Shown: positions 1,998 to 35,146, counted from the stretch's first letter. The stretch: 36,512 nt of DNA from a virus (IMGVR_UViG_3300037195_000603:1-36512); one strand, 5' to 3'. The notes: generated by a model not told the origin, from the sequence alone. Program-made: numbers and translations.

Positions 1998-2258
1998 TTA
2001 GTACCAGATCCAGAACCATTCAAAGGAGAATGCACAGAACCAGGCAAAGGCTGTTGCGCCTATAGTGAATAATAGAATCCAAAGAAGTTTTATTTCACTC
2101 TCCACAACAAGGAAAAGAACACGGAAAAGGAGCATGGCTAGGATAACTGCGAGGATTGCTGTTGTATATTTCATGAGCATCCACATCTCAGGATGGTCAA
2201 GGATGTATCTGTCAATTGGCACAGTTTCTACTAGAGGAATGACAAGCACACTCATCAT
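1998..2258 (-). CDS. Hypothetical membrane protein (2 TM)
   Basis: Two long hydrophobic stretches. The start overlaps the 3' end of the APS kinase gene. Confidence 0.5.
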   Translation of the reverse strand: MMSVLVIPLVETVPIDRYILDHPEMWMLMKYTTAILAVILAMLLFRVLFLVVESEIKLLWILLFTIGATAFAWFCAFSFEWFWIWY

Positions 2259-2586
2259 ACTCAAATGGGTAATCAGGGTGCTCCATTCCTCCCTGTAGAA
2301 TAATAAAGTTACAGTCAATTGTACGCTTTATATCCCAGCGTAGTTCCCTGTATGGAGCTATAACGGAAACGATCACATCTTTCCCCTGACTTTCCAGCTC
2401 ACTAGCTAGACGTGCTATACGCCAGCAATTTTCTTCCCTATCACTTTGAGAGAGTCCTAGGTCTTTGTTTATTGTATCTCGCATCCTGTCACCGTCTAGG
2501 TGTACAGCATCAGGTATGCGCTTTATAAATTCTTTGGCTAGAGTTGTCTTTCCACTCTTACTTTGCCCCGCGATCCATAGGATCAT
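2212..2586 (-). CDS. cysC: Adenylyl-sulfate (APS) kinase, compact form
   Basis: P-loop GQSKSGKTT, LDGD motif, DLGLSQSDREENCWRIA and VSVIAPY, all characteristic of APS kinases. Confidence 0.85.
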   Translation of the reverse strand: MILWIAGQSKSGKTTLAKEFIKRIPDAVHLDGDRMRDTINKDLGLSQSDREENCWRIARLASELESQGKDVIVSVIAPYRELRWDIKRTIDCNFIILQGGMEHPDYPFEYDECACHSSSRNCAN

Positions 2587-3173
2587 ACTTTAGAAATTTT
2601 AAAGCCTATAAAAGCTGGATGAGTAATTGGTATCTTCTTAACTCTGAAGCCTGAGAACAAATACTTAATGTCATCAGGTGTAAAAACTTGTTCATGATGG
2701 TGACTGTTGTTACCTAGTCTTCCATCATCTGTGACAATGATTCCAAATTGATTTACGTTCTTCATTAACTCAACAAATACATTAGGATCTTGTACGTGCT
2801 CTATTGTGTTTAGAGAAAAGAGGAAATCAAAGTTGATCTCTTGATTCTCATAAACAAATGTTTCAACTGGCCCTTCCCACACACTGAAGCGATGGTCATC
2901 TACAAATTCATATGCGTACTTGTTCCCTGTCTCCTCTGGGTCTATACCTAATATCTTCAACTTCTTGTTATGAGACTTTTCAAGCATTAGGTGGTCAACT
3001 AGGCCATCTCCTGACCCTACGTCCACCAGAGAGCATTCTGAGGCCCGTGAGAGCCTGTGAATAAGAGGACGTAGTGCGTCATCAACTAGCTTTTTATAGT
3101 TTGCGTTACCGCCGTAGTACCAGTCCCAGTGGATAGCACCCCGCCGTTCGTACTTGTGATAGTGGTGAGCCAT
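2583..3173 (-). CDS. Class I SAM-dependent methyltransferase
   Basis: Motif I LVDVGSGDG, GID, and FDFLFSLNTIEHV. Confidence 0.85.
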   Translation of the reverse strand: MAHHYHKYERRGAIHWDWYYGGNANYKKLVDDALRPLIHRLSRASECSLVDVGSGDGLVDHLMLEKSHNKKLKILGIDPEETGNKYAYEFVDDHRFSVWEGPVETFVYENQEINFDFLFSLNTIEHVQDPNVFVELMKNVNQFGIIVTDDGRLGNNSHHHEQVFTPDDIKYLFSGFRVKKIPITHPAFIGFKISKV

Positions 3174-3174
3174 A

Positions 3175-3801
3175 TCAATATCTCATAAAGAGTTTCTCTT
3201 TTCGGATGTAAGAACCTGTCTGCTTTAGTGGTACATCCTGTCCATTCAACTCTAGAAATGATAGCACAGAGTTCTGAAAGTCAAGTGGTAGCTTCTCTAT
3301 CTCTTTTCCACGCGTCATGTCCTCGTAAGTTACTTCCAAGTAACGCAGATTGTTTTTACCGAACATGTCTTTTATTTTCCACTCAAACCCCTCAACAAAA
3401 CCCAAGTGTTCCTGAAACTGTGTGAACGAAAGTGTGGCACGGTTTTGTTCATTCATGTTGCGTAGGAATGTTCTGCCCTTACAACGCTTCAAGTGGATGA
3501 TGTATGCGTCATGACTCTCCAGCCATTGCAGTATCTCTGGATGTGATTGGATGTTGTTGTACTTAAGATCAAAGCCAAGGATGGCTGGTGGTTTCTTATC
3601 TTCGTCATACTTTCCCTTATGACACTTATCAAAGTATCTGCCTTCTTTCTTAAACGTCTGCATGAATGTCTTGAAGCTCTTTAGTCGTGTTGCCTTGGTA
3701 AGGATCTCGTCATGCAGAACAATGTCAGGATGTGAATTAAAAAAAGACCTGAATAAATTCGTACCAGACCCCTGTTGTGAGATAAGACAAGCTATCCTCA
3801 T
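3175..3801 (-). CDS. Sulfotransferase (Stf0/Sulfotransfer_3-like)
   Basis: 5'-PSB-like loop SQQGSGTNLFRSFFNSHPDI, GFDLKY, IIHLKR, LEVTYEDM and VLSFLEL. Confidence 0.75.
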   Translation of the reverse strand: MRIACLISQQGSGTNLFRSFFNSHPDIVLHDEILTKATRLKSFKTFMQTFKKEGRYFDKCHKGKYDEDKKPPAILGFDLKYNNIQSHPEILQWLESHDAYIIHLKRCKGRTFLRNMNEQNRATLSFTQFQEHLGFVEGFEWKIKDMFGKNNLRYLEVTYEDMTRGKEIEKLPLDFQNSVLSFLELNGQDVPLKQTGSYIRKEKLFMRY

Positions 3802-4156
3802 ATGGTTTTGTGTAAGTGTTTCAATTGTAAGTTTATAGGATTGAGTCCAATAAAACGCTGAATGTCTAGTATTGGGTCATCTTCAAATAAGTCTACTATG
3901 AGGATATCATTATATAAACTGTACCAACGCTTAAGCAACTTATTCACTTGATTGATTTTGTTGTACTGGTGGTAGGTGTAGTGAAAAGGGTCATTCATAT
4001 CCCTAATGTTTTCAGCCTCAAGTCAATGCCTCATATCTCTAGTCCACAGTTCACAAACTGTTTGTAAACGTTTGCAAACACCATAGTCATTAAAGTGATT
4101 GCGTTAGTTCGTAATCACTTTTTTGTATGACCATGAAACAGCTACGAGAAGATTCC
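3798..4156 (-). pseudogene. Possible degraded second sulfotransferase. The 66-aa ORF 3798-3998 is its intact 3' part.
   Basis: One frame reads LRNLLVAVSWSYKKVITN*RNHF...DMRH*LEAENIRDMNDPF...DILIVDLFEDDPILDIQRFIGL, resembling the 3'-PB and C-terminal sulfotransferase motifs, with two in-frame stops. Confidence 0.35.
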
Positions 4157-4528
4157 TTAGGGTGTTCTCCTAACGTAATAATAGCCCAGCTTCCTATATT
4201 GTTTTCCCCTTATTTTAGTCCCTGAAATGGACTCTGTTTCATCATCTAAATCAATTTGACGTATGCCATATCCTACTTTTCTCCCATAACACACTGATTC
4301 TATGTCAGGTAAGGCAATGAAAATCATCTGTCCATCAGCTACTTCATCAGTAAATTCCTTACGAAACATCCCCATTCTCTCGTTTATTGAGTAGGGATTA
4401 GACTTGTCCACACCCGTGTTCCTGAACCCTATAAGCACACTCTTACCCTCATCCAAAACTGTGCGGATGAGTTTAATGTGCCCCTCGTGTAATGGTTGAT
4501 AACGACCAATAAAAAAAGAGTATTTCAT
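4157..4528 (-). CDS. Cytidylyltransferase-like (HIGH-motif) nucleotidyltransferase
   Basis: FIGRYQPLHEGH (HxGH), NPYSINER, and C-terminal ISGTKIR (SxxxxR motif). Confidence 0.85.
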   Translation of the reverse strand: MKYSFFIGRYQPLHEGHIKLIRTVLDEGKSVLIGFRNTGVDKSNPYSINERMGMFRKEFTDEVADGQMIFIALPDIESVCYGRKVGYGIRQIDLDDETESISGTKIRGKQYRKLGYYYVRRTP

Positions 4529-7248: not shown

Positions 7249-8124
7249 ATGCAAAAACCCCTTATCGGTTTTATCGGACAAGGGTTCATTGGCGGATCTT
7301 ACGCTGATGACTATGAAAACCGAGGCTATGAAATTGTCAGATACTCTCACAATCGCTTTAAACAAAACAAGGAGAAGATTAAGGACTGTGACATCGTATT
7401 CATTGCTGTTCCTACTCCTACTACTCCCGACGGGTTTGACGATTCTATTCTTCAGGGGGTTCTTCCGCTCGTTGGTGATGGAAAGACTGCGGTCATCAAG
7501 TCAACGATGCAGGTCGGAACAACAGAGAAGTTCCAAAAGATGTTCCCAGACAAGTTCATCTTCCACTCACCAGAGTTCTTAACAGAGAAGACAGCAGCAC
7601 ATGATGCAGCTCATCCTGATAGGAACATCATAGGTATCACTGACAAGGAAGGAGCTAACGAAAAAGCTAATCAAGTTATTGCCTCTCTACCGTTTGCTCC
7701 CATACAGATGATATGTGACAGCAAGGAAGCAGAGCTGATCAAGTACGGTGGAAATTGCTGGTTCGTATTCAAAGTCCTCTATATCAATATGCTTTACGAT
7801 CTATGCAAAGTTAACGGATGTGACTACGACATAGTGAGCTACGGCATGAGTGGAGATCCTCGCATAGGGCACACTCACCTAACGGCTGTTCACTCAGGGA
7901 GAGTGGATGAGAATAGAGTTGAGGGTAGAGGAGCAGGGGGACATTGCTTTATCAAAGACTTTGCGGCATTTCGTGAGATGTATGAGAAGCACCTTCCTGT
8001 GGATGATTGTCCACGGGATGGTCTAGCCATGCAGCTCCTAGACGCTGCGGAGACTTACAACAAACACTTACTCACAGAGACAGGTAAAGACCTGGATCTA
8101 CTAAGAGACGTATATGGAGAATAA
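7249..8124 (+). CDS. ugd: UDP-glucose/GDP-mannose dehydrogenase family protein (short, no C-terminal UDP-binding domain)
   Basis: GQGFIG Rossmann motif, FIAVPTP, VIKST, SPEFL, AELIKY, DPRIG and catalytic GAGGHCFIKD. Confidence 0.9.
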   Translation: MQKPLIGFIGQGFIGGSYADDYENRGYEIVRYSHNRFKQNKEKIKDCDIVFIAVPTPTTPDGFDDSILQGVLPLVGDGKTAVIKSTMQVGTTEKFQKMFPDKFIFHSPEFLTEKTAAHDAAHPDRNIIGITDKEGANEKANQVIASLPFAPIQMICDSKEAELIKYGGNCWFVFKVLYINMLYDLCKVNGCDYDIVSYGMSGDPRIGHTHLTAVHSGRVDENRVEGRGAGGHCFIKDFAAFREMYEKHLPVDDCPRDGLAMQLLDAAETYNKHLLTETGKDLDLLRDVYGE

Positions 8125-8323
8125 GAAAAACAGAACAGTCGCTATTCTACTCGCGTTCTTTCTTGGGGGATTAGGTATTCAATGGTTCTACCTAAACAAG
8201 CCACTCAATGGAATTATCTCATTCCTATTCTGTTGGACATTCATCCCAGCACTTGTGGCACTATTTCAAATTGTTATGTGGCTCATGATGAATGATGCTA
8301 AATTCGCAGAGACCTATGGCTAA
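8114..8323 (+). CDS. TM2 domain membrane protein
   Basis: KNRTVAILLAFFLGGLGIQWFYL...LFCWTFIP is the TM2 signature. Confidence 0.85.
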   Translation: MENKKNRTVAILLAFFLGGLGIQWFYLNKPLNGIISFLFCWTFIPALVALFQIVMWLMMNDAKFAETYG

Positions 8324-9182
8324 ATGTCTTGTTACAGGAGCAGCAGGATTTATTGGTCATAACCTTGTTGGCCGTCTTCTTAAGGACGGTAATTTGGTTA
8401 TAGGCATGGATAACTTCCTGACTGGTTCTAAAGAAAATGTTCAAGAGCACGAAAACTACACCTTCATGGAGTATGATCTGACATGGGAAACACCTCACAT
8501 TGATGATGTGGACTACGTGTTCCACCTAGCAGCACTTCCACGTGTGCCAGTTTCTTTTGATGAACCATATAAAAGTCTGACAAACAACATAATTCCAACG
8601 ATTAACGCGCTTGAGATCTGTAGAAAGTCATGTGCCAAGATGATTTATTCATCCTCTAGCTCTATCTACGGGAACCAGATTAGTTATCCAACAAATGAGG
8701 AAGCCTCCAAACACATGATGAGTCCGTATGCTCGTGCTAAGTGGATAGGTGAGGAGCTATGCCTTGAATACGAACAAGCCTTTGATGTTCCGTTTGTAGC
8801 ATTGCGTTACTTCAATGTTTATGGGCCTGGTATGACATCAGGTGGTTATGCCACTGCGATTAAGATATTCTTAGAACAAAGGGCAGAGGACAAACCCCTG
8901 ACTGTGACAGGAGATGGGGAGCAAATGCGAGATTTCACCCATGTGGATGACGTTGTTAATGCGAACATCAAGTGCATGAAGAAGGGATCAGGAGCCTTTA
9001 ACATAGGCGCAGGTTCACCACGTAAGATCATAGATATAGCCCGAATGATCTCAGATGACATTCAGTTTATTGATAAGCGAAATGAACCACACCTGAATCA
9101 CGCTGACTATACAAAAGCAAAGAGAGAGCTTGACTGGCTACCTCTTGCACATTTTGATGACAAACTAAACGAACTTTTATGA
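8316..9182 (+). CDS. NAD-dependent nucleotide-sugar epimerase/dehydratase (extended SDR)
   Basis: TGAAGFIG, HLAA, SSSSIYG, YARAK (YxxxK), LRYFNVYGP, GDGEQMRDF. Confidence 0.93.
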   Translation: MAKCLVTGAAGFIGHNLVGRLLKDGNLVIGMDNFLTGSKENVQEHENYTFMEYDLTWETPHIDDVDYVFHLAALPRVPVSFDEPYKSLTNNIIPTINALEICRKSCAKMIYSSSSSIYGNQISYPTNEEASKHMMSPYARAKWIGEELCLEYEQAFDVPFVALRYFNVYGPGMTSGGYATAIKIFLEQRAEDKPLTVTGDGEQMRDFTHVDDVVNANIKCMKKGSGAFNIGAGSPRKIIDIARMISDDIQFIDKRNEPHLNHADYTKAKRELDWLPLAHFDDKLNELL

Positions 9183-9478
9183 CACAAGACGAGTATTTAC
9201 TAGATTTTATTCAGCAAAAAGAGAAACTCCTTTGGGGAGTTCAGTGGGAACTTGAGTTTGCTAAGACACATCATGGTGACCTTCTCAAGGAAGGAGCACT
9301 TGAGGCAGCACGGGACGAATTATTTAAGTCAAAGAATCAGGACGATGAAGACTTACACGCCGAGTATGAGCAGAAGGTTAATGATGTGCGTGACACAATT
9401 AAAGTTGTTCAGCGTCTTGAGCAAACAGCAGATGATTTAACAGCACAAATAGATTACTTTAAGTCTCTATGCATCTAG
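9179..9478 (+). CDS. Hypothetical coiled-coil protein
   Basis: ATGA overlap, helical composition. Confidence 0.6.
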   Translation: MTQDEYLLDFIQQKEKLLWGVQWELEFAKTHHGDLLKEGALEAARDELFKSKNQDDEDLHAEYEQKVNDVRDTIKVVQRLEQTADDLTAQIDYFKSLCI

Positions 9479-10077
9479 AATTTTCTTTTGATGATGGACA
9501 CAAGATGGATCTCTATATTGGAAGGCTATTGAAGAAACATGGATTTAGGGGGATGTTTTATATTCCAACACTTAGACATCCAATAGATGGATTGGATGAA
9601 GATGAAATCAAAACACTTGCAAAGGATCACGACATAGGCTTTCACAGTTATTCACATCCGTCGGATCTAAAAGACAGCAAGGATATTGAGATGGAAGTGA
9701 CAAAGGGTAAGGACAAGTTGGAGAAGTTGATAGGCAGAAAGATAACGTCATTTTGTTATCCTAAAGGCAGGTATAATGAGGAAGTTATAGAAGCATTAAA
9801 GAGGCATGGGTATACGGAAGGGCGAACTGTTGATGTTGGAAAGATTGAGAATTGTTTTGAACCATTTCGTAAGCCAACAACCATGCACTTTAGGCCAGAC
9901 AAGAAGGAGTGGAATGGTTTTGAGTGGTTGCCAATGGCTAAGAATCTCTTTCTTGAGGCACAGATGCTTGAGGAAAGGGGATACTTTCACGCATGGGGAC
10001 ACGCATCTGAGTTAAATAAATTTAGAATCTGGAGGGAATTTGATGAATTGTTAGCTTTTATGGAAGAAAACCTATGA
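9469..10077 (+). CDS. Polysaccharide deacetylase (CE4/NodB)
   Basis: SFDDG, HSYSH, FCYPKG and FHAWGH motifs. Confidence 0.88.
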   Translation: MHLEFSFDDGHKMDLYIGRLLKKHGFRGMFYIPTLRHPIDGLDEDEIKTLAKDHDIGFHSYSHPSDLKDSKDIEMEVTKGKDKLEKLIGRKITSFCYPKGRYNEEVIEALKRHGYTEGRTVDVGKIENCFEPFRKPTTMHFRPDKKEWNGFEWLPMAKNLFLEAQMLEERGYFHAWGHASELNKFRIWREFDELLAFMEENL

Positions 10078-11012
10078 AAATATTCATGCCTCACGCTTCC
10101 AGTAAGAATACTGGGGGTGGATCTACGTTCGTACGCAACCTAAAAGACGGGGTTTCAGATGATATTCAGTTTGTTAACTCACTGGATGAGGCACAGATTT
10201 TGTTTATTCCAGGTGTAACACTATGCAGTAGACCAACATTCCGTGAGGCTATTGCAAAGGAGAAACTGATTGTCACTCGCGTAGATAACATTCCAGAGGA
10301 TCACAGGAACAGAGGTACAGGTATTCCACGGCTAAGGGATTTTGCAGAGCAGTCCCATTTCGTTATCTTCCAGAGTGAGTGGTCAAAGCACGTAGTGGGT
10401 CAGATTACAGGGGAAAAGGGTGTGGTAATCTATAACGGCGTAGATACTAAGATATTCTATCCAGACGAAAGCCAGAGAGAAGATAAGCCCACATTCATCT
10501 ATGTTAAGCACTCAAGGAATGAATGCAAACGATTTCAAGAAGCTCAAGTTCTTTTTCGTGAATATGCAAGGTCACATGAAGCAAAGCTCATCGTGGTTGG
10601 AAAATTCAGTGACGACATCGTACGTTATAACCTCGGATTCTATGATGGTGAAGACGTGGAATTCTTGGGGATACTCAATCACCTGCAACTGGCAGAGCAA
10701 TACAGACGAGCACACGCACTGATCTTCCCTTCTTTTGGTGACTCCTGCCCAAATGTAGTTCTTGAGGCAATGGCAAGTGGATGTAGAGTTCTTCACCATC
10801 CATGGGGAGGTACAGCAGAGTTGGTTGGAAGTACTGGTCCACAACTTCGTTATGGAAAAGTAAATACTCCATCTACTCTTATGTATGATGCTGTTGAATA
10901 TGTAAAAGAGGAAATGGGAACAGGTAATCCTAGAGAACGAGTCATGGAGAATTTCACACTTGAAAAAATGGTAGAGCAATACGAAGGAATATTTAAACTT
11001 TGCGTAAGATAA
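10074..11012 (+). CDS. Glycosyltransferase family 4 (GT-B)
   Basis: GGGST, IYNGVD, FPSFGDSCPNVVLEAMASG. Confidence 0.9.
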   Translation: MKIFMPHASSKNTGGGSTFVRNLKDGVSDDIQFVNSLDEAQILFIPGVTLCSRPTFREAIAKEKLIVTRVDNIPEDHRNRGTGIPRLRDFAEQSHFVIFQSEWSKHVVGQITGEKGVVIYNGVDTKIFYPDESQREDKPTFIYVKHSRNECKRFQEAQVLFREYARSHEAKLIVVGKFSDDIVRYNLGFYDGEDVEFLGILNHLQLAEQYRRAHALIFPSFGDSCPNVVLEAMASGCRVLHHPWGGTAELVGSTGPQLRYGKVNTPSTLMYDAVEYVKEEMGTGNPRERVMENFTLEKMVEQYEGIFKLCVR

Positions 11013-11029
11013 CTATGAAGCCAAGTCAG

Positions 11030-11055
11030 TCACCTTCGTGACGTCACGAAGGTGA
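11030..11055. repeat. Perfect 26-bp palindrome without a spacer
   Basis: TCACCTTCGTGAC|GTCACGAAGGTGA. Confidence 0.95.
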
Positions 11056-11089
11056 TCCTCTACGTTTTCAAAGCCTATTTAGTAAAACT

Positions 11090-11680
11090 ATGAGTTCAAA
11101 CTTCAGAATACAATTAGAGCATTTCCTTAAAACAATAGACGTAAAGGCAGAGAAAGTTTTAGATGTTGGCGGTCTTCAGTATCCAATTACAAGAAGGGTG
11201 AAGTCCTGGGATGTTAAGGAATATAAGATCTTTGACATTGAGGAAACAATGAAGGAACGTAATGCAGATTATGTTGGTGATGTCTCACGTTCGCTGGCTT
11301 ATCACGAAAGTATTGATGAGCTGGAGGATGAATGGGATGTCGTTTTTTGTTTGGAAGTTATGGAGTACGTCTTTGATCCTATCCAGACACTCAAGAATAT
11401 TCACAATTTCCTAAAGGTTGGTGGTACAGCCTACATTAGCTTCCCGTTCATCTATCCTTCACATCCACCACTGGGTACTGACTATCTGCGCTATACAGAA
11501 GATGGTGTGAACAAGGTATTACGTGAGTCGGGTTTCAAAGAAAAGGAGATCGTGGTAAGGCGCGCTGGCCCAGGACGTAGGTTACTAAAACAATTCTTTG
11601 ATGAGGAAGGTATGAAGTACCGCAAAGACGACTTCTCCTTGTTGGATCACATTGGTTACATGGCCATAGTTAAAAAATAA
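11090..11680 (+). CDS. Class I SAM-dependent methyltransferase
   Basis: VLDVGG, DVVFCLEVMEY, LKVGG, PFIYPSH...DYLRYT, a type common in glycan clusters. Confidence 0.88.
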   Translation: MSSNFRIQLEHFLKTIDVKAEKVLDVGGLQYPITRRVKSWDVKEYKIFDIEETMKERNADYVGDVSRSLAYHESIDELEDEWDVVFCLEVMEYVFDPIQTLKNIHNFLKVGGTAYISFPFIYPSHPPLGTDYLRYTEDGVNKVLRESGFKEKEIVVRRAGPGRRLLKQFFDEEGMKYRKDDFSLLDHIGYMAIVKK

Positions 11681-11681
11681 T

Positions 11682-11864
11682 ATGCAAGACAAATACACAT
11701 CAACAAGTTATCCTGAAATTCAATGTTGGACATGCAAGGAATGTGAGAATGATATGAATCTTGAGATGTATGCCAGAGAACCAGAACAAGGATTAGAATT
11801 GATTTGTAATGGATGCGACAGAGAAGTGTTTGTTGAAGGTGAGTACGAAGAAATTTTAGTTTAA
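11682..11864 (+). CDS. Small zinc-ribbon protein
   Basis: CKEC...CNGC. Confidence 0.55.
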   Translation: MQDKYTSTSYPEIQCWTCKECENDMNLEMYAREPEQGLELICNGCDREVFVEGEYEEILV

Positions 11865-12001
11865 TCCTTTTTTTGATAAGAAAATACAAACAGAAATAGA
11901 AATATTTAAACATCCAAAAATCATTCAATCTAAATTGTTGGGGTTAACATCAGAACATCAAGGCTATAACTTCTGGGGACAAATGCCAACAGCAAAATAC
12001 T

Positions 12002-13588
12002 ATGAAGATTTTAGCCATAACTGATGGGGGCAACTGGTGCCTCGACAAACTTACTAAGGTGGTTGTTGATGGAAACCCTCAGCATTCGTGGAAGGTCATG
12101 ACTGTACATCCTAAAAAGGTGGTACATCAACTTGATGAAGTTGAAAAAGCAATGGATGAGGCTGATCTTGTGTGGCATCAATACTTTCGCACAGCTACCC
12201 AACTATATGATCTTATTCCTGATTCCTTTCGTAAGTCCCCACAAGTCCTTACACACCATAATCAAAGCGATAAGGTTCTTAGGGAAGACTTTAGGTGGGC
12301 AGACTACATGGTGTGCCACACCCAAAAAATGAGAGAGAAACTAATAGAAAAAGGATATGACAAAGTTTGCGTTATACCTCATGGAATTGATCTTGATTTT
12401 TTTGATTACGATAGTAATCCTTACGAGCACGACGTATTCACTGTGGGGTATGTGGGTAGAACGAAACCATGGAAGCGCTTGGCTAAAGTGGCTGAAATAT
12501 GCAATGAGCTTTCTATTCCTATGGTTGGTATGGGTAGGCGTGATGATGGTTATGCTAATGAGGTGAACTGGGAAAACATTGATTGGCATGAGGGTGTAGA
12601 GGATGACGAGCGGTTTGAAATCTATAAGAAGATGAGTTGTTTTGTTCAATTCTCTTATGATTGTTCCAAGCATGAGGAAGCTGGCCCTATGCCACTACAT
12701 GAGGCTATGGCATCTGGTATCCCTGTGATCACAACAAACGTGGGCTTTGCACGTGACTGGATACAGGACGGTAAGAACGGACTTGTTGTTGATAACGAAC
12801 AGGATCTTAAGTACCAGCTCATTCGCCTCAAGGAAGATCCAAAGCTCTGTAAGTTACTACGCGAAAAGGCATGGGATACAGTAAAGCAGTTTTCTGAACC
12901 TAAGATGGCTATTCAGTATGAGAGATTGTTTAACCAAATAAAGTGGTCAGAGGAAGATACCGTGTCTGTTGTTATCCCCACATATCAAAGGCCAGAGCAG
13001 CTAGAGGAGATCATTGATTCCATAGAGGAACAGGAGATTAAGTCCATTGAGGTTGTGGTAGCAGATGATGATCCTGTTGGGTCTGCATTTGTAGTGGTTA
13101 AGAAGATGCGCGAAAAATATAAGCACTTGGCCATTAAGTACGTTCGGACTGGTTACTCAGGCTATGGACTCGCTCGTGCGCGCAACCTAGGGGCTATAGA
13201 AGCTCAGGGACATTACCTAGTTTTCCTTGATGACCGGTACTGCCCTGAGAAGGATGCGCTAACAAAGCTCGTCATGGGGCTTAAGGTGCGCAAGAAGAAG
13301 GCATGGGTCTTTGGTGACAAGGGAGCTGGGAAGAAAACATTTATAGAGAACTTCTCTGCTATTAGGCGTAAGGACTTCATTGACATGGGAATGTTCTGCG
13401 AAAGGATCACTGCATACGGTGGTATGAGCCAAGAATGTCGTACGCGCGCATTGCACCAGGGGTTTGACCTGGGCTATGTGCCAGAAGCAAAAGCTAAAAC
13501 AATAATTAACACTAGACGTATGCGTGGTAGGCGTAAGGATATCTGGAGAATGAAACAACTCCTTCACCGCATGGGTTTATCGCGATGA
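12002..13588 (+). CDS. Fused GT4 + GT2 glycosyltransferase
   Basis: N-terminal GT-B (IPHGID, YVGR, EEAGPMPLHEAMASGIPV). C-terminal GT-A (VSVVIPTY, VADD, ARARNLG, FLDD). Confidence 0.92.
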   Translation: MKILAITDGGNWCLDKLTKVVVDGNPQHSWKVMTVHPKKVVHQLDEVEKAMDEADLVWHQYFRTATQLYDLIPDSFRKSPQVLTHHNQSDKVLREDFRWADYMVCHTQKMREKLIEKGYDKVCVIPHGIDLDFFDYDSNPYEHDVFTVGYVGRTKPWKRLAKVAEICNELSIPMVGMGRRDDGYANEVNWENIDWHEGVEDDERFEIYKKMSCFVQFSYDCSKHEEAGPMPLHEAMASGIPVITTNVGFARDWIQDGKNGLVVDNEQDLKYQLIRLKEDPKLCKLLREKAWDTVKQFSEPKMAIQYERLFNQIKWSEEDTVSVVIPTYQRPEQLEEIIDSIEEQEIKSIEVVVADDDPVGSAFVVVKKMREKYKHLAIKYVRTGYSGYGLARARNLGAIEAQGHYLVFLDDRYCPEKDALTKLVMGLKVRKKKAWVFGDKGAGKKTFIENFSAIRRKDFIDMGMFCERITAYGGMSQECRTRALHQGFDLGYVPEAKAKTIINTRRMRGRRKDIWRMKQLLHRMGLSR

Positions 13589-13606
13589 CACCCGACCGTT
13601 CTTAAT

Positions 13607-13858
13607 ATGTCAAAAATGATAAGGAAATTGAAAGACAATTACGATTCACATGATCAGTGTCCTAAATGTCTTAGACACAATTTGAATTGGAAGAAACGTA
13701 TTCTTACTAATGAGCGTAAAAATAAAGAATTTCATTTTTGTAAATGGATCAGTTGTGGAACTACAAGATGTGGTTTTGTCTGGTTTACAAATAAGTTCAA
13801 AGTGATGAAAGGAGAAAAATGTAATTGTAAAAAACAAATTTCAATTGTTTCAATATGA
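13607..13858 (+). CDS. Basic Cys-rich hypothetical protein
   Basis: CPKC...CGTTRC, AT-rich relative to its neighbours. Confidence 0.5.
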   Translation: MSKMIRKLKDNYDSHDQCPKCLRHNLNWKKRILTNERKNKEFHFCKWISCGTTRCGFVWFTNKFKVMKGEKCNCKKQISIVSI

Positions 13859-14850
13859 GTGATTTTAAAACACCATGGGGGAAGAAATATGGTCGTAAGC
13901 TGAAGATCTTTGGAGTGCCATGGCATGTGGCTCACCAATACGAGTTAATGAAGATCCCAGAGACAGAGTGGTTCTTTCTAAAGAATCATACGAGGAAGTG
14001 GTCTGATGTTGCACGTCCTGAACCAGATAACCTGACATGGGTATCTCACTATGAGCCAGGTACATATGATTTTGCTTTAGTTCACGTAGACCAACAGTGT
14101 GTTTACCAGCCTATTGGTAAAGGCAAACTTTTCCGTGAACTTAATGAAGTGATAACGGACATTCCTAAGATCCTTATTTGTCACGGCACACCATTTTGGC
14201 CTGAGATGTATGGGTCAGAGGAGATTATTAAGATGATGTCAAAGATGATAGGGCCTCTCGCGGAGAATTGTGTAATGAATTCGGAGAGATCAGTTGAAAT
14301 GTGGGGCTTTGGACACTTCATCCGTCACGGTATTTCCCCAGAGGAATGGCCAGCACTACCAAAGGAACCAAGGATCGTTACCAGCATATCCCCAGGCGGG
14401 TTGGATGAGTATTACAACAGGAAGCTGCTAAAGGCTGTACAGGAAGACCTACGCTCGGATCACAATATTAGGCATTGCCATGTAAGTGTAGACGTAAAGC
14501 CTCAAAATCAAGAGGAATATTCAAGGTTTATTGGATCATCCCTCATTTACTTCAATCCAACACTTGAGAGCTGTATGCCACGCTCTAGGACTGAGGCATT
14601 GATGACAGGTGCATGTGTAGTAACACTTAATAACCATGACATTGGTAAGTACCTGGTGGATGGAGAGAGCGGATTCTTTGTGAAAAACAACCCAAAGGCG
14701 TGTGTAGATAAGCTTGTTGAGCTATTCTATGACTATGAGACATGTATTAAAGTGGGTATGAAGGGACGGGAAGTAGCACTAAAACACTTCACAACAGAAC
14801 AATTTATAGAGCAGTGGATAAGTCATATTAGTAATGTCTTGAACATATGA
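13855..14850 (+). CDS. Glycosyltransferase (GT-B, GT4-like)
   Basis: IRHGI, YFNPTLESCMPRSRTEALMTG, DGESGF, GREVALKHF. Confidence 0.85.
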   Translation: MSDFKTPWGKKYGRKLKIFGVPWHVAHQYELMKIPETEWFFLKNHTRKWSDVARPEPDNLTWVSHYEPGTYDFALVHVDQQCVYQPIGKGKLFRELNEVITDIPKILICHGTPFWPEMYGSEEIIKMMSKMIGPLAENCVMNSERSVEMWGFGHFIRHGISPEEWPALPKEPRIVTSISPGGLDEYYNRKLLKAVQEDLRSDHNIRHCHVSVDVKPQNQEEYSRFIGSSLIYFNPTLESCMPRSRTEALMTGACVVTLNNHDIGKYLVDGESGFFVKNNPKACVDKLVELFYDYETCIKVGMKGREVALKHFTTEQFIEQWISHISNVLNI

Positions 14851-15035
14851 AACTCTACGAAATTCCAAAAGAATCAAAGATTTATGTTGAGTCCTCAGAT
14901 GGCTCTAAGTTCATTATCTTTTATCACATAGACGGTATGTATTCGTATTGTGAAACCGAGAAAGGTGCAGTTGTTCACCTATCTGCTAGTGCCGAGCTTG
15001 CCCGGCATGAAGATGGATATAAAATTAAAGTATAA
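14847..15035 (+). CDS. Small hypothetical phage protein
   Basis: ATGA overlap, MKLYEIP...HIDGMYSYC. Confidence 0.6.
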   Translation: MKLYEIPKESKIYVESSDGSKFIIFYHIDGMYSYCETEKGAVVHLSASAELARHEDGYKIKV

Positions 15036-15040
15036 ATAAT

Positions 15041-15928
15041 ATGAATGGAGCCTTTCTATCCTTTGCCAAATACCATGGTAAAGACCGCAGTTCTATAGGA
15101 TCTACTCGCATTCGTGTTGATTGGGTAATGAAACATTGGCCTGAAGAATTCGGAACTGTAGAAGAATATAAGCAGGGGGGTAAGTATGACTTTTTGATCT
15201 ATCAGAAAGCATACTGGCCAGTACACGCAAAAATGTATCCAGGTATTAAGATTCTAGATATGTGTGACGCGGATTGGTATGACTGGGAATACTCAATTGT
15301 TGAGCATATCTGTTACATGGATGCAATCACAACGTCCACACAGAAGCTACAGAAAGCCCTACAAGCCATTGTTAGGGGTATGGTTGAGCGGGGAGACCTA
15401 GAGAATGAGATTCCTGTTGTATGGATTGATGATCGTATGGATACAGATTTTCATGAGGACAAGAAAAAAGAACATAACGACATCCTGGAATGGGTATGTT
15501 GGATGGGTTATTCACATAACCTCAAAGCACTAGACCCAGTAGTTCCATTCCTTCAAGCAAATAACTACAAACTGTGTGTTATCTCAGACAGGGCCTACAA
15601 CAAGGCGGATAAGAACTATCCATGGAAACTAGATACAGTGAATAGGGATATGATTGAGAATGACATTATGCTTAACCCAAGGCTAGATTGGGGTAAGTGG
15701 CAGTATAAGAGTGATAACAAGACAGCTACAGGCTGGGCATTAGGTCTTCCAGTAGCAAGGGACGTAGACGAATTTAAGGCTCTACTTAGCAGAGAATCAA
15801 GGGAAGAGGAAGCAAAGAAAAGACTAAAGCAGATAGAGAAGGACTATCATCCAAGAAAGTCTGCAATGGAATATGTAAAACTAATATTAGATTGTGCGGA
15901 AACTAAAATACGGGAACAGAAAGACTGA
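15041..15928 (+). CDS. Divergent GT-B-fold glycosyltransferase-like protein
   Basis: STRIR, IYQK, LDMCD, WMGYSHN and KSDNKTATGWALGLPV (resembles KSxNK...ALGLPV). Confidence 0.6.
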   Translation: MNGAFLSFAKYHGKDRSSIGSTRIRVDWVMKHWPEEFGTVEEYKQGGKYDFLIYQKAYWPVHAKMYPGIKILDMCDADWYDWEYSIVEHICYMDAITTSTQKLQKALQAIVRGMVERGDLENEIPVVWIDDRMDTDFHEDKKKEHNDILEWVCWMGYSHNLKALDPVVPFLQANNYKLCVISDRAYNKADKNYPWKLDTVNRDMIENDIMLNPRLDWGKWQYKSDNKTATGWALGLPVARDVDEFKALLSRESREEEAKKRLKQIEKDYHPRKSAMEYVKLILDCAETKIREQKD

Positions 15929-16235
15929 AGTAGACGGAATTCTCTTTGATTCAAAGAAGGAGGCTGCTTATTATTGTGAGCTTAAACTAAGGAAAAAGGC
16001 AGGAGATATATTCAATTTTGATCTACAACCTGTATATGAACTACAGACTGCATTCCGTGACAATAGCGGTAAACACATAAGAGCAATTACATACAAGGCG
16101 GACTTTGTTGTGTATGAAGATGGGAAAACTACTATTGTAGATGTCAAAGGAATGAAGACAGAAGTGTTCAAGATCAAGTGGAAAATGCTAAAGTATAAGT
16201 ATAGAGAACGCGGATATGAATTTTTACTTGTATGA
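15894..16235 (+). CDS. DUF1064 family PD-(D/E)xK nuclease-like protein
   Basis: KYGNRKTEVDGILFDSKKEA, LQPVYEL, YKADF, DVKG. Confidence 0.88.
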   Translation: MRKLKYGNRKTEVDGILFDSKKEAAYYCELKLRKKAGDIFNFDLQPVYELQTAFRDNSGKHIRAITYKADFVVYEDGKTTIVDVKGMKTEVFKIKWKMLKYKYRERGYEFLLV

Positions 16236-17494
16236 AAATTCAATATAAAAGTATAGATGAGTTGAAACCTGCTGATTATAACCCACGTCAAATGACCAAG
16301 GATCAGGCAGAAGGTTTGGAAGAGTCTTTAACTGAATTTGGTTTTGTTGATCCTATAATCGTGAATTCAAATGAGGAAAGGAAGAATGTGGTTATAGGGG
16401 GACATCAGAGATTGAAAATAGCTAAGAAAATAGGATTGAAAGAAGTGCCTTGTGTATTTATTGATTTAGATGCTGAGAAAGAGAAGGAGTTAAATCTGCG
16501 ACTTAATCGCAATGTTGGTGAATGGGATTGGGATAAGTTGGCAAACGATTTTGATGTGGACTTATTACTTGATGTGGGTTTTAATCCAGAGGAGCTAGAT
16601 ATAAAAATTGATAAAGATATTGAAGAGGATGAAGTACCCGACATACCAGAGGAGCCAATATCACAGCCAGGTGACTTGTATCAACTTGGCGAACATAGAC
16701 TACTTTGTGGTGACGCTACCAAGGCTGAGGATGTGGAGCGGTTGATGGACGGAGAGAAGGCAGAGCTATTGTTCACAAGCCCACCCTATGCTGATCAACG
16801 TGATTATTCTGGCGGATTGAATTTAGACACAAAACACTTGGCACAGTTTTTCCAAATGCCAGCCAGCCTATATGTTGTGAATTTAGGTATGAAGTTTAGT
16901 AAAGGCGAGGTAGTGAATTACTGGGACCATTATATTGAAGTGGCAAAGGAAAATGGTTTGCCGTTTATCAGCTGGAATGTATGGGACAGAACTGGAGATT
17001 TTTTCAGTGTTGGTCAGATTACACAGATGTTTGCCATAGCACACGAATGGTTATTTGTTTTCGGAGAGAAAAAGGATTTGAATTTGACAATAAAAAACAA
17101 GACTAAAGCTGGTAAAGTTGCAAAGGGGACAAACAGACAAAAGGATGGCTCGTTGAAATATAATGAAGTAAAGGTGCGAAGTCATAGACAGCTTGGAACA
17201 GTATTAAATACAACTAAAGAAAAGTCTGGAATCCACCCCGCAATGTTTCCTGTTGTCTTGCCTACCGAGTATATTCAAGCATGTACTCAAAGCGGTGATA
17301 TTGTATCTGATCCATTCGGTGGCTCTGGTTCTACCCTCATGGCTTGCGAACAAACCAACCGCAAGTGCTATATGATGGAGCTTTCAGAAAAATATTGTGA
17401 CGTAATTATTAAGCGATTCATTGACTATACTGGACAAGATGTTGTAAAATTAGAAAATGGAAAAGCAATATCTGTCAAAGAATCTTATATGTAA
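16232..17494 (+). CDS. ParB-like N-terminal domain fused to a beta-class N4/N6 DNA methyltransferase
   Basis: YNPR, GFVDPII, GGHQR (ParB), then HRLLCGD, TSPPY, HPAMFP and DPFGGSGST. Confidence 0.92.
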   Translation: MKIQYKSIDELKPADYNPRQMTKDQAEGLEESLTEFGFVDPIIVNSNEERKNVVIGGHQRLKIAKKIGLKEVPCVFIDLDAEKEKELNLRLNRNVGEWDWDKLANDFDVDLLLDVGFNPEELDIKIDKDIEEDEVPDIPEEPISQPGDLYQLGEHRLLCGDATKAEDVERLMDGEKAELLFTSPPYADQRDYSGGLNLDTKHLAQFFQMPASLYVVNLGMKFSKGEVVNYWDHYIEVAKENGLPFISWNVWDRTGDFFSVGQITQMFAIAHEWLFVFGEKKDLNLTIKNKTKAGKVAKGTNRQKDGSLKYNEVKVRSHRQLGTVLNTTKEKSGIHPAMFPVVLPTEYIQACTQSGDIVSDPFGGSGSTLMACEQTNRKCYMMELSEKYCDVIIKRFIDYTGQDVVKLENGKAISVKESYM

Positions 17495-18320: not shown

Positions 18321-19644
18321 TCCAACTGCCTTCATTTATGACTGCTGGGGTGTAAAACTATGGGACAAGTTAGAAACTATAGCCCAATCAGTCTGGACAA
18401 ATCAGAGGACAATCGTGCCTTCTGGTCATGGTATTGGCAAAACGTGGCTCAGCGCTCGTCTAGCCCTTGCCTTCCTGTACAGCTTCTATCCATCAAAGAT
18501 CATCACGACTGCGCCAACATGGCCGCAAGTGGAGACCTTGCTGTGGGGTGAGATCAGAAAAGCACATTCTGAGTCCAAGATACCTCTGGGCGGATTGCCA
18601 CAGAAAACAAAGCTTGAACTGTCTCCTGACTGGTTCCTACGTGGGTTGTCCACAACGGGAAGTGTAGCAGAGAGAGAGTTCGGAGCCACTAGATTCCAAG
18701 GATTTCACTCGGAAAACCTTTTGGTCATCTTAGACGAGGCACCTGGAGTTGAACCTTCAATCTGGATAGCCACAGAATCCCTTATCGTTGGGGATAACAA
18801 CAGGATACTTGCAATTGGAAACCCTACCTCTCCAACAGGAATGTTCTATGATGCTTGTAGATCACCCCTGTGGAATAAGATACAGGTATCATGCTATGAC
18901 CATCCCAATGTTAAAGAGAACAGAACTGTAATACCTGGTGCTGTAACACCCAATTGGATTGATGAGCGTAAGCAGGAATGGGGTGAAGACTCCCCACTTT
19001 ATAAGGCTAAAATATTAGGTGACTTCCCAGATGAGGGAGAGGATACACTGATACCATTATCATGGGCTGAGGATGCCATGCACAAACAATTGAAGGCAGA
19101 AGGTAAGAGAAGATTAGGGTGTGACGTAGCTAGATTTGGATCTGATAAGACAGTTATCTTTGAAATGAATGGCCCAGTAGCAAATTTATTAGACGTGACT
19201 GGGAAAGTTGATACAATGGTTACAGTAGGTAAAATTCGTTCCTATGCTAAAGATGATACTCTTATTGCTGTTGATGACAGTGGTGTCGGAGGCGGTGTTA
19301 CTGATCGCTTACGTGAGCTTGAGGACAGCGTTGATGCCGTCAACTTCGGAGAAAGAGCAATTGAACCAGAAAGATTTGCCAACTTAAAGGCAGAGGCATT
19401 TTGGTTATTAAGGGAGAGATTCAAACCAAATAGTCCAGATCCTATACAGATTCCAGATAGCCAAGAGTTGTTATTCCAATTAACAAGTATTAAGTACACC
19501 TACACGTCCAAAGGACAAATCAAGATAGAGAGCAAAGAGGATATGAAAAAGAGGGGGATGAAGTCACCTGACTTAGCTGATGCACTAGCCATTTGCAATT
19601 ACGCTGGAAGACGTAACAAGGAACCAACGATTACAATTCTATGA
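18265..19644 (+). CDS. terL: Terminase large subunit
   Basis: Walker A SGHGIGKT, Walker B VILDEA, GNP, nuclease GCDVARFGSD and SPDLADAL. Confidence 0.95.
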   Translation: MDQLEIQRGLQTLEKWRNDPTAFIYDCWGVKLWDKLETIAQSVWTNQRTIVPSGHGIGKTWLSARLALAFLYSFYPSKIITTAPTWPQVETLLWGEIRKAHSESKIPLGGLPQKTKLELSPDWFLRGLSTTGSVAEREFGATRFQGFHSENLLVILDEAPGVEPSIWIATESLIVGDNNRILAIGNPTSPTGMFYDACRSPLWNKIQVSCYDHPNVKENRTVIPGAVTPNWIDERKQEWGEDSPLYKAKILGDFPDEGEDTLIPLSWAEDAMHKQLKAEGKRRLGCDVARFGSDKTVIFEMNGPVANLLDVTGKVDTMVTVGKIRSYAKDDTLIAVDDSGVGGGVTDRLRELEDSVDAVNFGERAIEPERFANLKAEAFWLLRERFKPNSPDPIQIPDSQELLFQLTSIKYTYTSKGQIKIESKEDMKKRGMKSPDLADALAICNYAGRRNKEPTITIL

Positions 19645-22385
19645 TGGCTGACAAACTTAAAAACATATCTCACCAGATGAAGAAGAAGGGGATGAAGTGG
19701 TGGGAAATTGAAGACACATATGTTAAAGACTTCATGCTTCAAGAGGAGCTTTCAAACCTTAAAGGAGAGAAGGGAGATAAAGGCTCTAAAGGCTCAATTG
19801 GAAAAACTGGTAAGCAAGGTAAACAAGGTAGTAGAGGAGATAGGGGAACGACAGGAAAACATGGAAAGGTGGGATCAAGAGGGCTAACAGGAAAGACTGG
19901 AAAGACAGGCCTTGTAGGTAAGCAGGGTAAAGTAGGAGCACAGGGGCCTAAGGGGCCTAAAGGAGACAAAGGAGAATCTGGCAAACCAGGGCCACAGGGT
20001 AAGACTGGGCCAAAGGGAGATAAGGGTGATGCTGGTGAAACAGGAGATGTAGGAATGACTTTTAGGGGTCAGTACCAATCTGATACCCGATACAACAAAA
20101 ATGATGTTGTTTTCTATGCAGGCAGTTCTTTTATTGCACTAGAAGACAACAGAAATACTGCACCAAGTTTTACTATTGACCCTAGGTATAGAGATAACAC
20201 CTGGGGTATTTTGGCTATTAAGGGTGCTCAAGGTGGATCTGGTGCGTCATCCGAACAGTATGTCTTGGTAGATGGGACACGTGCCATGACAGGGGGCCTT
20301 GAGATAGTAGGTAGTGCTGATGAGTCCCAGTTAACTGTTTCTGCTCATTCAACACAGACAAATCCTATTTCAATCTGGGAAGATGATTCAGGTAATGCTC
20401 AGATAACATTTAGTGGAATAGGTGGTGCAGTATTCAATGAACAAGGCAATGACGCAGATTTCCGTATTGAGGGTGATGCAGATACTCACTTATTCTTCCT
20501 TGATGCCAGTGAAGACACCATTTCAATGGGAACATCTGATTCTTCCTATGTAAATGATGGTGCAACGATCTACCCTAAATTTCTTATTCAACGTGAGGCA
20601 GGGCCTGCAAAAACATCATTAGTAAACAGGCACTTCTCTGATACGTTTAATGAGCCTCCGTTCTTAACATTGGCTAAAGCTAGAGCTGCTGAAACAGCAC
20701 TTGTAGACGGTGATTGGGTAGGTATATTCCAATTCCTAGGACATGATGGTACTGATTACCAAGGGTCTACTATCATCAGAGGACAGGTAGATGACACTGT
20801 TTCAACAGGTGTGATGCCAATTGGATTGCTGTTCCTTACTGGTGATGCACAATCACAACAGACAAGTATTGTTTGTCATTCAGGTGGAAATGTAGGAATT
20901 AGAACCACATTTGCTAGTGCAAACTTTGAAGTAGAGGGAAATACTGTATTTAACCAATCTGGTGCAGATGTAGACTTCAGGGTTGAGGGTAGTGGAGTAG
21001 CAAACTTATTTGGCATTGATGGTGGTCTGCCTGCTGTACGCATTGGTGATGCCGTAGCTGGATCTGTAGCAGATTTTAGATCAACTGTAATTACCTTTAA
21101 TGAGAGCGGGGAAGATCAGAACTTTAGGGTAGAGACACTGAACAACACATTCATGTTCCACGTAGATGGTGGACTAGACACTGTTTACATCGGAACAACC
21201 GTTCTTGGTGCTATAGCAATATTTGGTGCAACCAGTATTGTTTTCAATGAAAATGGTGCAGATCAGGACTTTAGAATAGAGGGTGACACAGCAACCAATC
21301 TGTTTAACTGTAATGCAGGATTGGATTCTGTTCAGATTGGTACAACATCAGCAGGTGCCATAGCACAATTTGGACCTTCACTGATCACGTTCAATGAGAC
21401 AGCACAGGATCAGAACTTCAGGGTTGAAACGGTTAATAATCCTTTCATGTTCTTTGTTGATGCTGGAATAGACGCGGTACATATAGGAGATGCAGCAGCA
21501 GGTACATTAGCTAAGATCTCTACAGCAGAGATTAACTTCAATGATGCTGGTGCTGACATTGACTTCCGTGTTGAGGGTGATGTTGACCCTAATTTGCTTT
21601 TTGTTAATGCTGGAACTAATAGAGTTGGAATAGGAATTGCTGTTCCAAATGATAGATTGCACGTGAGTAATGGTTCAATCCTTAAAACTGGTACAACAAC
21701 AGTAGGAAGTAGAATTGAGAATGCTAGATTTAGTGCAAACAACCTTGGATCTATCAACATAATGAGTAAGAGCCGTAACGCGACAATTGGTAGTCATACA
21801 GTTGTACAAAATGGTGATATTTTGGGGCTTCATACATTCCAAGGATCAGATGGTTCTTCATTTGTAGAAAGTGCTCAAATAGCTGCTGAAGTAGATGGAA
21901 CACCAGGGGCAGGTGATGTACCTGGATTGATAAGTTTTCTAACACAGCCAGCAGGTGGAAGTTTGACAAAGAGACTTTCTGTCTATTCAAGTGGTAATAT
22001 TGAATTTAATGCAGGTACAAAGACAGAAGGATTGGTGTTTAGAAAGACTGCTGAAATTCAAACAACAGACGCAACTCAAACAACAGTAGATGGATTCGTA
22101 TTACTTGATGAGAATACTTATCATCTTAAAGCACGAGTAGTTGGAGTAAAGAGTGATGGGTCTGAAAGAGCTTCTTATGAAATTGATGCAACAGCTTATA
22201 GAACAGGTGCAGGAGTTGCGACATTACAGGGAAGTGTTACAAGTCTTCATACTCAAGAGAGTGATGCTACCTGGGATGCAACATTTACTGTAAATAGTAA
22301 TAGTGTCAGGGTTTCGGTTACTGGTGTAGCGGCAACAACCATTGAATGGGTTTGTGTTTTAGAAGTAATAAATATGAGTAATTAA
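19641..22385 (+). CDS. Collagen-like fibre / adhesin with 49-aa beta repeats
   Basis: 32 G-X-Y triplets, a CBM5/12-like segment (YNKNDVVFYAGSSFIAL), six FNxxGxDxDFRxE repeats, RVGIG fibre motif. Confidence 0.8.
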   Translation: MMADKLKNISHQMKKKGMKWWEIEDTYVKDFMLQEELSNLKGEKGDKGSKGSIGKTGKQGKQGSRGDRGTTGKHGKVGSRGLTGKTGKTGLVGKQGKVGAQGPKGPKGDKGESGKPGPQGKTGPKGDKGDAGETGDVGMTFRGQYQSDTRYNKNDVVFYAGSSFIALEDNRNTAPSFTIDPRYRDNTWGILAIKGAQGGSGASSEQYVLVDGTRAMTGGLEIVGSADESQLTVSAHSTQTNPISIWEDDSGNAQITFSGIGGAVFNEQGNDADFRIEGDADTHLFFLDASEDTISMGTSDSSYVNDGATIYPKFLIQREAGPAKTSLVNRHFSDTFNEPPFLTLAKARAAETALVDGDWVGIFQFLGHDGTDYQGSTIIRGQVDDTVSTGVMPIGLLFLTGDAQSQQTSIVCHSGGNVGIRTTFASANFEVEGNTVFNQSGADVDFRVEGSGVANLFGIDGGLPAVRIGDAVAGSVADFRSTVITFNESGEDQNFRVETLNNTFMFHVDGGLDTVYIGTTVLGAIAIFGATSIVFNENGADQDFRIEGDTATNLFNCNAGLDSVQIGTTSAGAIAQFGPSLITFNETAQDQNFRVETVNNPFMFFVDAGIDAVHIGDAAAGTLAKISTAEINFNDAGADIDFRVEGDVDPNLLFVNAGTNRVGIGIAVPNDRLHVSNGSILKTGTTTVGSRIENARFSANNLGSINIMSKSRNATIGSHTVVQNGDILGLHTFQGSDGSSFVESAQIAAEVDGTPGAGDVPGLISFLTQPAGGSLTKRLSVYSSGNIEFNAGTKTEGLVFRKTAEIQTTDATQTTVDGFVLLDENTYHLKARVVGVKSDGSERASYEIDATAYRTGAGVATLQGSVTSLHTQESDATWDATFTVNSNSVRVSVTGVAATTIEWVCVLEVINMSN
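19764..20051 (+). repeat. Collagen (Gly-X-Y)32 repeat, Lys-rich
   Basis: Uninterrupted triplets from GEK to GDV. Confidence 0.95.
20949..21640 (+). repeat. Five tandem 147-nt (49-aa) repeats
   Basis: FNQSG/FNESG/FNENG/FNETA/FNDAG each start 49 aa apart (20949 to 21537). Confidence 0.9.
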
Positions 22386-35145: not shown

Positions 35146-35146
35146 T

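Follow-up and report, generated by a model that had tools for sequence, protein, structure and literature searches.

Introduction

To my knowledge, genome annotation assigns ATP sulfurylases to just two families, Sat and CysDN. Making adenosine 5′-phosphosulfate (APS) from ATP and sulfate is thermodynamically unfavourable. Here I analysed a whole virus record, IMGVR_UViG_3300037195_000603:1-36512 (36,512 bases, hereafter the window), which carries a nucleotidyltransferase of 123 amino acids (4157..4528, minus strand) near genes for a sulfotransferase, a methyltransferase and an APS kinase. This protein and its APS-kinase-linked family are called mini-NT below. As judged from sequence and gene context, the mini-NT is quite probably a minimal ATP sulfurylase whose family has had no name, and it would supply the short kinase with APS; the resulting 3′-phosphoadenosine 5′-phosphosulfate (PAPS) would be used by a sulfotransferase-fold protein on a phage-made glycan. 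On a wider view, the family is probably a third, independently evolved ATP sulfurylase: a 110-residue strand-swapped dimer cut from nicotinamide mononucleotide (NMN) adenylyltransferase (NMNAT), serving as the 'missing' sat of SAR11, as the sulfate activator of a cys operon in marine alphaproteobacteria, and as the supplier of PAPS in hundreds of phages, some of them infecting bacteria of the candidate phyla radiation (CPR).

In Allochromatium, sat lies directly upstream of aprMBA (PMC3779200). For Pelagibacter ubique, PMC5069961 reports sat and cysDN as absent and leaves AprBA as a sulfite detoxifier. Of seven SAR11 strains, only one had sat (PMC3448164).

Results

The cassette in the virus genome

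The cassette region is laid out as follows.

4157..4528, minus strand: mini-NT, an HxGH nucleotidyltransferase of 123 amino acids (GRYQPLHEGH; PF01467, E 4.7e-9)
4092..4121, no strand assigned: 12-pair hairpin, terminator-like on the plus strand, within the 158-nt gap beyond the mini-NT gene
3798..3998, minus strand: orphan open reading frame (ORF) of 66 amino acids, no family, 4-nt overlap with the sulfotransferase start, GC 0.33
3175..3801, minus strand: sulfotransferase-fold protein of 208 amino acids (homologues with PF13469; fold matches)
2583..3173, minus strand: class I S-adenosylmethionine methyltransferase of 196 amino acids (PF08241 above cut-off)
2212..2586, minus strand: lidless, CysC-like APS kinase of 124 amino acids (PF01583, E 3.3e-21)

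The four minus-strand enzyme genes of the original prediction are all present; the orphan ORF was omitted there and may not be a gene. PF01747 (Sat) and PF01507 (CysD/CysH) have no match anywhere in the record, in agreement with the stated lack of sat and cysDN. The APS kinase belongs to the expected family (PF01583), but it is a short, lidless form below the NCBIfam cut-off. The idea of a single operon fits the sulfotransferase, methyltransferase and kinase genes, which abut or overlap (with the orphan ORF included, the junctions are a 4-nt overlap, a 1-nt gap and a 4-nt overlap), but the mini-NT gene is set off by the 158-nt gap with its 12-pair hairpin. The gap folds with a z of -2.35, 5 of 200 shuffles being equally stable. 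Promoter-like sites gave no information, 7 being seen where 9.5 were expected. The whole cassette may form one operon. A decayed second sulfotransferase in 3798-4160, suspected by eye, was unsupported (best E 0.017-0.019, ~2 bits, no blastx relative), and stop-codon recoding in the same interval was rejected, the stops being a mix of TAA and TGA.

Linkage to APS kinase and sulfotransferase genes

It was found that 40 of 42 longer mini-NT homologues are fused to an APS kinase (PF01583), which comes first in 19 and last in 21. An independent profile search found the kinase in 53 of 68 long representatives, the remaining 15 having HAD-like, methyltransferase, HNH, DHHA1, DUF2061 or unassigned parts. 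Five long fusions picked by eye all have kinases above the TIGR00455 (CysC) cut-off. Gene neighbourhoods were taken from the best 80 of 558 confirmed viral loci and from 17 cellular loci. An APS kinase is present in 68 of the 80 viral loci (46 of the 49 with 2.5 kb on both sides), fused in 18; its strand is that of the mini-NT in every case. Of the 17 cellular loci, 13 have the kinase. A sulfotransferase is present in 29 viral and 5 cellular loci; its profile was built from locus neighbours, so its seeds count by construction, and several members were confirmed by Pfam, in a scan that covered 150 of the 729 neighbours. Thus, the co-occurrence and fusion with cysC and sulfotransferases that the original prediction called for are strongly borne out. 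That prediction was to fall if the protein acted as an NMN adenylyltransferase or a glycerol/sugar-phosphate cytidylyltransferase, formed no APS and had no linkage to cysC; as far as the sequence can tell, the linkage exists and the Trp helix of NMNATs is deleted.

Other partners were also seen. In P0117, P0119, P0193, L007 and L081, the mini-NT has as fusion partner or neighbour a DFDG (HAD-like) phosphatase, which could remove pyrophosphate (PPi) or 3′-phosphoadenosine 5′-phosphate. P0212 has a fused DHHA1-bearing domain, and P0239, P0290 and P0313 have a conserved helical tail that is MazG-like by eye; these partners could clear by-products.

Mini-NT genes in assimilatory and AprBA loci

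In marine alphaproteobacteria, four loci (L092, L094, L150, L151) share the gene order chelatase-cysG-cysI-cysH-small membrane protein-cysC-like-NT, with the mini-NT last. The CysH of these operons has a CC...CxxC pattern, which I take to be that of APS reductases; therefore, the pathway needs APS. In the family around this operon (11 genomes), CysH was found in 11, the mini-NT in 10, Sat in 1 and CysD in 0, four weak CysD matches being the cysH genes themselves. In 9 of the 11 genomes, the mini-NT follows the CysH match at a distance of 0.86-0.90 kb. The G001 family (e.g. L151:1354-6539) consists of small-genome marine alphaproteobacteria with a complete-looking assimilatory sulfate reduction operon, in which Sat and CysD were mostly not found.

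The second cellular context is that of AprBA, with the order NT-aprM-aprB-aprA in L097. The SAR11-family sample comprised 151 genomes, which, like the 11 above, are incomplete or of unstated completeness and akin to one another; the counts are not independent, and absence means 'not found'. The mini-NT was found in 95 genomes, aprA in 81 and both in 79, and the mini-NT lies upstream of aprA within 4 kb in 31 genomes and within 1.5 kb in 26. Among the 81 genomes with aprA, 4 have Sat and 75 have a mini-NT without a Sat match. Sat is present in 6 of the 151, and mutual exclusion of mini-NT and Sat was not found (P 0.41). CysD is present in 7 genomes, none of which has a mini-NT (P 0.0008 before kinship). 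Other SAR11 loci that were read out have the mini-NT, with or without a kinase, amid genes for glycans or for metabolism of no apparent relation. In several SAR11 loci (L097:2095-2766, L116, L117, L119, L125), the mini-NT and aprMBA have a gene of the CADD family (TIGR04305) next to them. In a SAR11 glycan island (L149:4630-8262, genome G093), cysD and cysN come after a sulfotransferase gene, which makes the island a conventional counterpart of the phage cassette.

Five of the six SAR11 genomes with Sat also hold the mini-NT. This would suit a protein that binds or consumes APS, either as an accessory or in one direction only (APS + PPi to ATP, or turnover), in which case the cassette would depend on host APS. 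The missing QXRN motif of Sat and the unfavourable forward reaction, with no pyrophosphatase identified in the window, point the same way. However, the mini-NT is the sole candidate APS source in the cys operons, where Sat was not found in 10 and CysD in all of the 11 genomes, and its catalytic HxGH and SxTxxR are invariant. The Sat reaction is also reversible (PMC3779200). An APS consumer is quite unlikely in my judgement, and APS formation by the mini-NT is preferred.

Sequence motifs and fold of the mini-NT

The mini-NT has 112 near-length homologues. A profile search of 1.84 billion representatives gave 963 matches at E 1e-10, some NMNATs among them, and 80 at 1e-30. Across 247 distinct mini-NT domains, there is little or no variation at G8, R9, H14, H17, P45, G82, R83, G86, S102 and R107, with H14 and H17 of the HXXH motif invariant, and residue 36 is R or K in 99%. 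The conserved motifs are HxGH, G82-R83-x-V85-G86 and S-[AG]-T-x-I-R.

The structural model (predicted local distance difference test, pLDDT, 90) is closest to archaeal NMNAT (Z 10.5, root-mean-square deviation (rmsd) 2.9, 110 residues aligned), phosphopantetheine adenylyltransferase (PPAT, 10.2) and NadM (10.1). The comparison with Sat proposed earlier confirmed a shared HIGH fold (Thermus Sat 1v47, Z 7.7, rmsd 3.2, 112 aligned), but NMNAT and PPAT are closer. Sat was rejected as the nearest relative; none was among the matches listed by a solved-structure sequence and profile search or by Foldseek. MAFFT left GRKVG unpaired with GRDHAG. The mini-NT has 123 residues in contrast to ~350-390 in the three-domain Sat, and PF01747 is unmatched; it would act like Sat but lies outside the Sat family. 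ISGTKIR is common to the window mini-NT and three SAR11 Sat proteins, but SGTxxR also occurs in NMNAT and hence is not diagnostic. The invariant G82-R83-x-V85-G86 follows a strand predicted to pair with strand 1, as a GRD loop would, but the DHA part differs and aligners leave the motifs unpaired. The mini-NT is not a trimmed Sat; it is nearer to archaeal NMNAT in fold and sequence.

Is the mini-NT then an NMN adenylyltransferase, or another cofactor nucleotidyltransferase, whose link to sulfur is incidental? In sequence and in fold, it matches archaeal NMNAT and NadM best, residues 1-77 align well, and it has the archaeal GRFQPxHxGH motif and fold. In comparison with 12 archaeal NMNATs, however, a stretch of ~25 residues that follows PDI and contains the Trp helix is missing from it, as are the C-terminal helices. 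The Trp helix, which is conserved in NMNATs for stacking on the nicotinamide, is present in 12 of 12 NMNATs and deleted in the three mini-NTs aligned, and R36 replaces the Gly of the NMNAT GIGS. The scores fall far below the archaeal NMNAT cut-offs (TIGR01527, 39.7 of 181.2 bits; PRK01153, 48.3 of 127). A separate NadD above cut-off was found in 4 of 5 genomes tested, genome G157 has its own NMNAT, and the fusion partners are APS kinases rather than Nudix or NadR domains. A cofactor role is highly improbable on this evidence, and the mini-NT is still read as a sulfurylase. In the archaeal class of G157, a full-length mini-NT match was found in 1 of 151 genomes; spread within the class was rejected, since 20 other genomes match residues 3-78 only and 11 of 11 that were read out are NMNATs.

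When 103 domains from the loci and the window were put in a tree together with 8 NMNATs, all mini-NTs fell into one clade, with an NMNAT-split support that is not reliably readable after rerooting. The window mini-NT shares 32-41% identity with members from SAR11 and the cys operons and 32% with an NMNAT; because of this low identity, the transfer of function rests on motifs and the tree. Descent from an NMNAT-like ancestor seems likely.

A predicted strand-swapped dimer

The homodimer prediction scored 0.84, as opposed to 0.01 for the best of 3 controls; among reference proteins, 20 of 30 known homodimers attain the mark used, as does 1 of 23 single chains, and these rates are rough here, with a custom alignment and ATP. 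Contacts agreed by 100% between runs, with pLDDT at least 90. In the predicted swap, residues 3-7 of one chain pair with residues 76-81 of the partner. The ~25-residue deletion removes the crossover between strands 3 and 4, and a swapped dimer would resolve the missing connection. The mini-NT is thus predicted by modelling to be a strand-swapped homodimer, in which the invariant G82-R83-x-V85-G86 loop would face the GRxQP/HxGH of the partner, at the place of the GRD loop in Sat. The two straddled strands of Sat are followed by its RNP and GRD loops, and sulfate is bound by the Ala NH of GRDHA (PMC3779200); QXRN and other motifs are also given in PMC6607087. The swapped GRxVG may share its residue register with the GRD loop, but a match of G86 to the Gly in the KGF turn of NMNAT is just as possible. 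A natural tandem NT-NT protein was also found (P0206).

The other enzymes of the cassette

The window kinase scores 73.8 bits with TIGR00455 (cut-off 138.7) and 54.7 bits with PRK05541, and was aligned to 1d6j/3cr7 (E 2e-13), best with the Penicillium APS kinase. It keeps the N-terminal APS kinase motifs, namely the P-loop, DGD, two arginines that presumably contact APS, Asn and IxP. These motifs are conserved across 74 locus kinases, the Phe of LGFS being Leu in the window kinase. The sulfotransferase-fold protein matches Pfam only at E 0.0077, but PF13469 was found in 15 of 24 homologues, and the top 14 fold matches of its model (pLDDT 84) are all sulfotransferases (Z up to 13.2, rmsd 3.4, 177 aligned). 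PAPS-dependent sulfotransferases have a basic residue in the 5′-phosphosulfate-binding (PSB) loop and an Arg...Ser 3′-phosphate-binding (PB) motif. In the window subfamily, R106 is invariant and is followed by R110-T111, the usual 3′-PB Ser being missing.

Campylobacter has an O-methyl phosphoramidate route in which cytidine diphosphoramidate is phosphorylated by a homologue of CysC. The mini-NT and kinase might similarly activate a non-sulfate acid (phosphoramidate, phosphonate or methylphosphate) to a 3′-phospho-NDP-X donor; the sulfotransferase-fold protein would transfer X and the methyltransferase would methylate it. The lidless kinase and the non-canonical PSB loop of the window would fit such a route, as would the methyltransferase gene, which is coupled between those of the kinase and the sulfotransferase, and the methyltransferases fused to the mini-NT in P0198 and P0228. 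The marine kinases match PRK05541 best, if weakly, and this model presumably covers the Campylobacter enzyme. On the other hand, the family is found with AprBA and CysH/CysI, which handle APS, and its fused kinases lie above the CysC cut-off. The window kinase itself favours TIGR00455 over PRK05541 and aligns best with an APS kinase, and no glutamine kinase or phosphonate genes were found among the 150 neighbours scanned. A non-sulfate donor is unlikely, and the reading with sulfate as the substrate is preferred.

Genome setting and host

Translations of the window include terminase, portal, prohead protease, capsid, tail and endolysin-like genes. The record is listed as linear and 54% complete, but bases 36504-36512 and 1-9 are identical (9 bases), and the ORF at 53-439, a paralogue (38%) of 35135-35713, is extended in frame across the joined ends. 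Thus, the window is probably a closed genome despite the listing. Only 1 of 33 window genes has a Shine-Dalgarno-like motif, and a 386-kb contig of a Patescibacteria metagenome-assembled genome (L084) has a prophage-like block with counterparts of the window's terminase (53%), portal, protease, capsid and tail tube, which also encodes a mini-NT and a sulfotransferase. A CPR host is therefore plausible.

A block for glycan synthesis lies beyond the cassette.

7249..15928, plus strand: glycan gene block with UDP-glucose dehydrogenase, epimerase, polysaccharide deacetylase, three glycosyltransferase genes (GT4, a GT4-GT2 fusion and a third GT) and methyltransferase

The block is large for a 36-kb phage. 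In the related phages L018 and L023, homologues of the window genes at 12002, 13855 and 15041 directly flank the mini-NT and kinase genes, just before the portal gene. This placement among homologues of the window glycosyltransferases supports a glycan acceptor, and the block is the presumable source of that acceptor. The gene at 15041-15928 encodes a 295-residue protein without a family, whose homologues lie downstream of the APS kinase in L011, L018, L023 and L024. Between terminase and portal lie genes for a 914-residue collagen-repeat protein (19641-22385) and a Methyltransf_24 protein (22614-23183); together they possibly make a glycosylated virion fibre. A ParB-N and DNA methylase fusion (16232-17494) adjoins the terminase genes.

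Discussion

The proposed reaction, ATP + sulfate to APS + PPi, is reversible; therefore, a single reaction could explain the phage, cys-operon and AprBA contexts. R9, R36 and R83 would be the phosphosulfate ligands, and coupling to the kinase would pull the unfavourable formation of APS. In the phage, the short kinase would turn APS into PAPS and the sulfotransferase-fold protein would use it to sulfate a glycan on the virion or the host surface, to which the methyltransferase (2583-3173) may add a further decoration. Phages of CPR bacteria would in this way bring a whole sulfation route into hosts that have none. In assimilation, APS from the mini-NT would feed CysH, and in SAR11 the reaction would run backwards with AprBA. 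The original prediction that the mini-NT makes APS gains support from linkage, namely the cysC fusions, the cys operon and the sat position at aprMBA, but not from a Sat-like fold.

Several observations weigh against this assignment. NMNAT and PPAT are closer in fold than Sat, hhalign with three Sat sequences reached a probability of 9.7 over the SGTKIR stretch only, and the sulfate-binding QXRN of Sat is missing, the family having G-R-[YWF]-Q-P. The identity of the window mini-NT to its cellular relatives is not high in comparison with that to an NMNAT. Genome G165 holds both Sat and mini-NT, as do the five SAR11 genomes mentioned above, and the SAR11 counts carry the limits of their sample. 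Among the 79 SAR11 genomes that have mini-NT and aprA, the two are not neighbours in 48, and the kinases beside marine mini-NTs are divergent, with PRK05541 as the best NCBIfam match at ~32 bits. No sulfotransferase was found in the DNA covered at 51 of the 80 viral loci, counts that come with no background-frequency control. The C-terminal lid (KGLY...FTG) is missing in the window kinase, and its pattern occurs in 8 of 82 locus kinases. In the window sulfotransferase subfamily, a conserved SQQGSGTN replaces the usual basic 5′-PSB loop.

If the mini-NT is a third family, claims that SAR11 and other marine bacteria have no ATP sulfurylase would need revision. Viral cysC is often counted as a sulfur-assimilation gene; in these phages, it would be part of a sulfation route that is complete in itself. 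For supplying PAPS, a sulfurylase of 12 kDa would make a simple tool. The AprBA of SAR11 would gain a partner turning APS into sulfate and ATP, as opposed to the sulfite detoxification alone that is put forward in PMC5069961.

Comparison with known systems

A description of the mini-NT family as an ATP sulfurylase was not found in the literature searched, with subscription papers and supplements beyond its reach, and the accessible parts of PMC2211403 and PMC9614988 contain nothing on it. PHROG phrog_10255 ('kinase') is a fusion of a kinase and PF01467, and both window proteins match this one profile. In the ESM Atlas, two mostly archaeal fusion clusters of 73 and 206 members are auto-named 'Sulfate adenylyltransferase/adenylylsulfate kinase (Met3)'. 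These entries are labels of unknown basis rather than a characterisation, and the window has the two halves as separate genes.

CysDN (TIGR02039) catalyses the reaction proposed for the mini-NT, and the L149 island is the conventional version of the cassette. In contrast, CysDN has an unrelated fold, two large subunits and GTP coupling. Archaeal NMNAT and NadM (1f9a, 1ej2, 2qjo; TIGR01527) share GRxQPxHxGH, NP..ER, PDI and S.t.iR with the mini-NT. The mini-NT differs in the deletion of the Trp helix and the next helix, in the missing C-terminal helices, and in the family-specific R36 and GRxVG; it forms a separate clade, and the sulfur-gene context is its own.

Sat (PF01747; Thermus 1v47, yeast Met3, Allochromatium Sat) differs from the mini-NT in length (~350-390 residues, compared with 110-125) and in having QXRN and GxxKxxD; the DHA of GRDHAG is not kept in the mini-NT, whose composite site is predicted to lie across the dimer. 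On the other hand, both have the HIGH fold, HxxH and SGTxxR, and the mini-NT is predicted to have, like Sat, a GR loop that comes after the strand next to strand 1. In Sat-CysC and PAPSS proteins (1x6v, 2gks), the sulfurylase and the APS kinase are joined in one order or the other, as in the mini-NT family, and the position of sat upstream of aprMBA in Allochromatium is the same as that of the mini-NT in SAR11.

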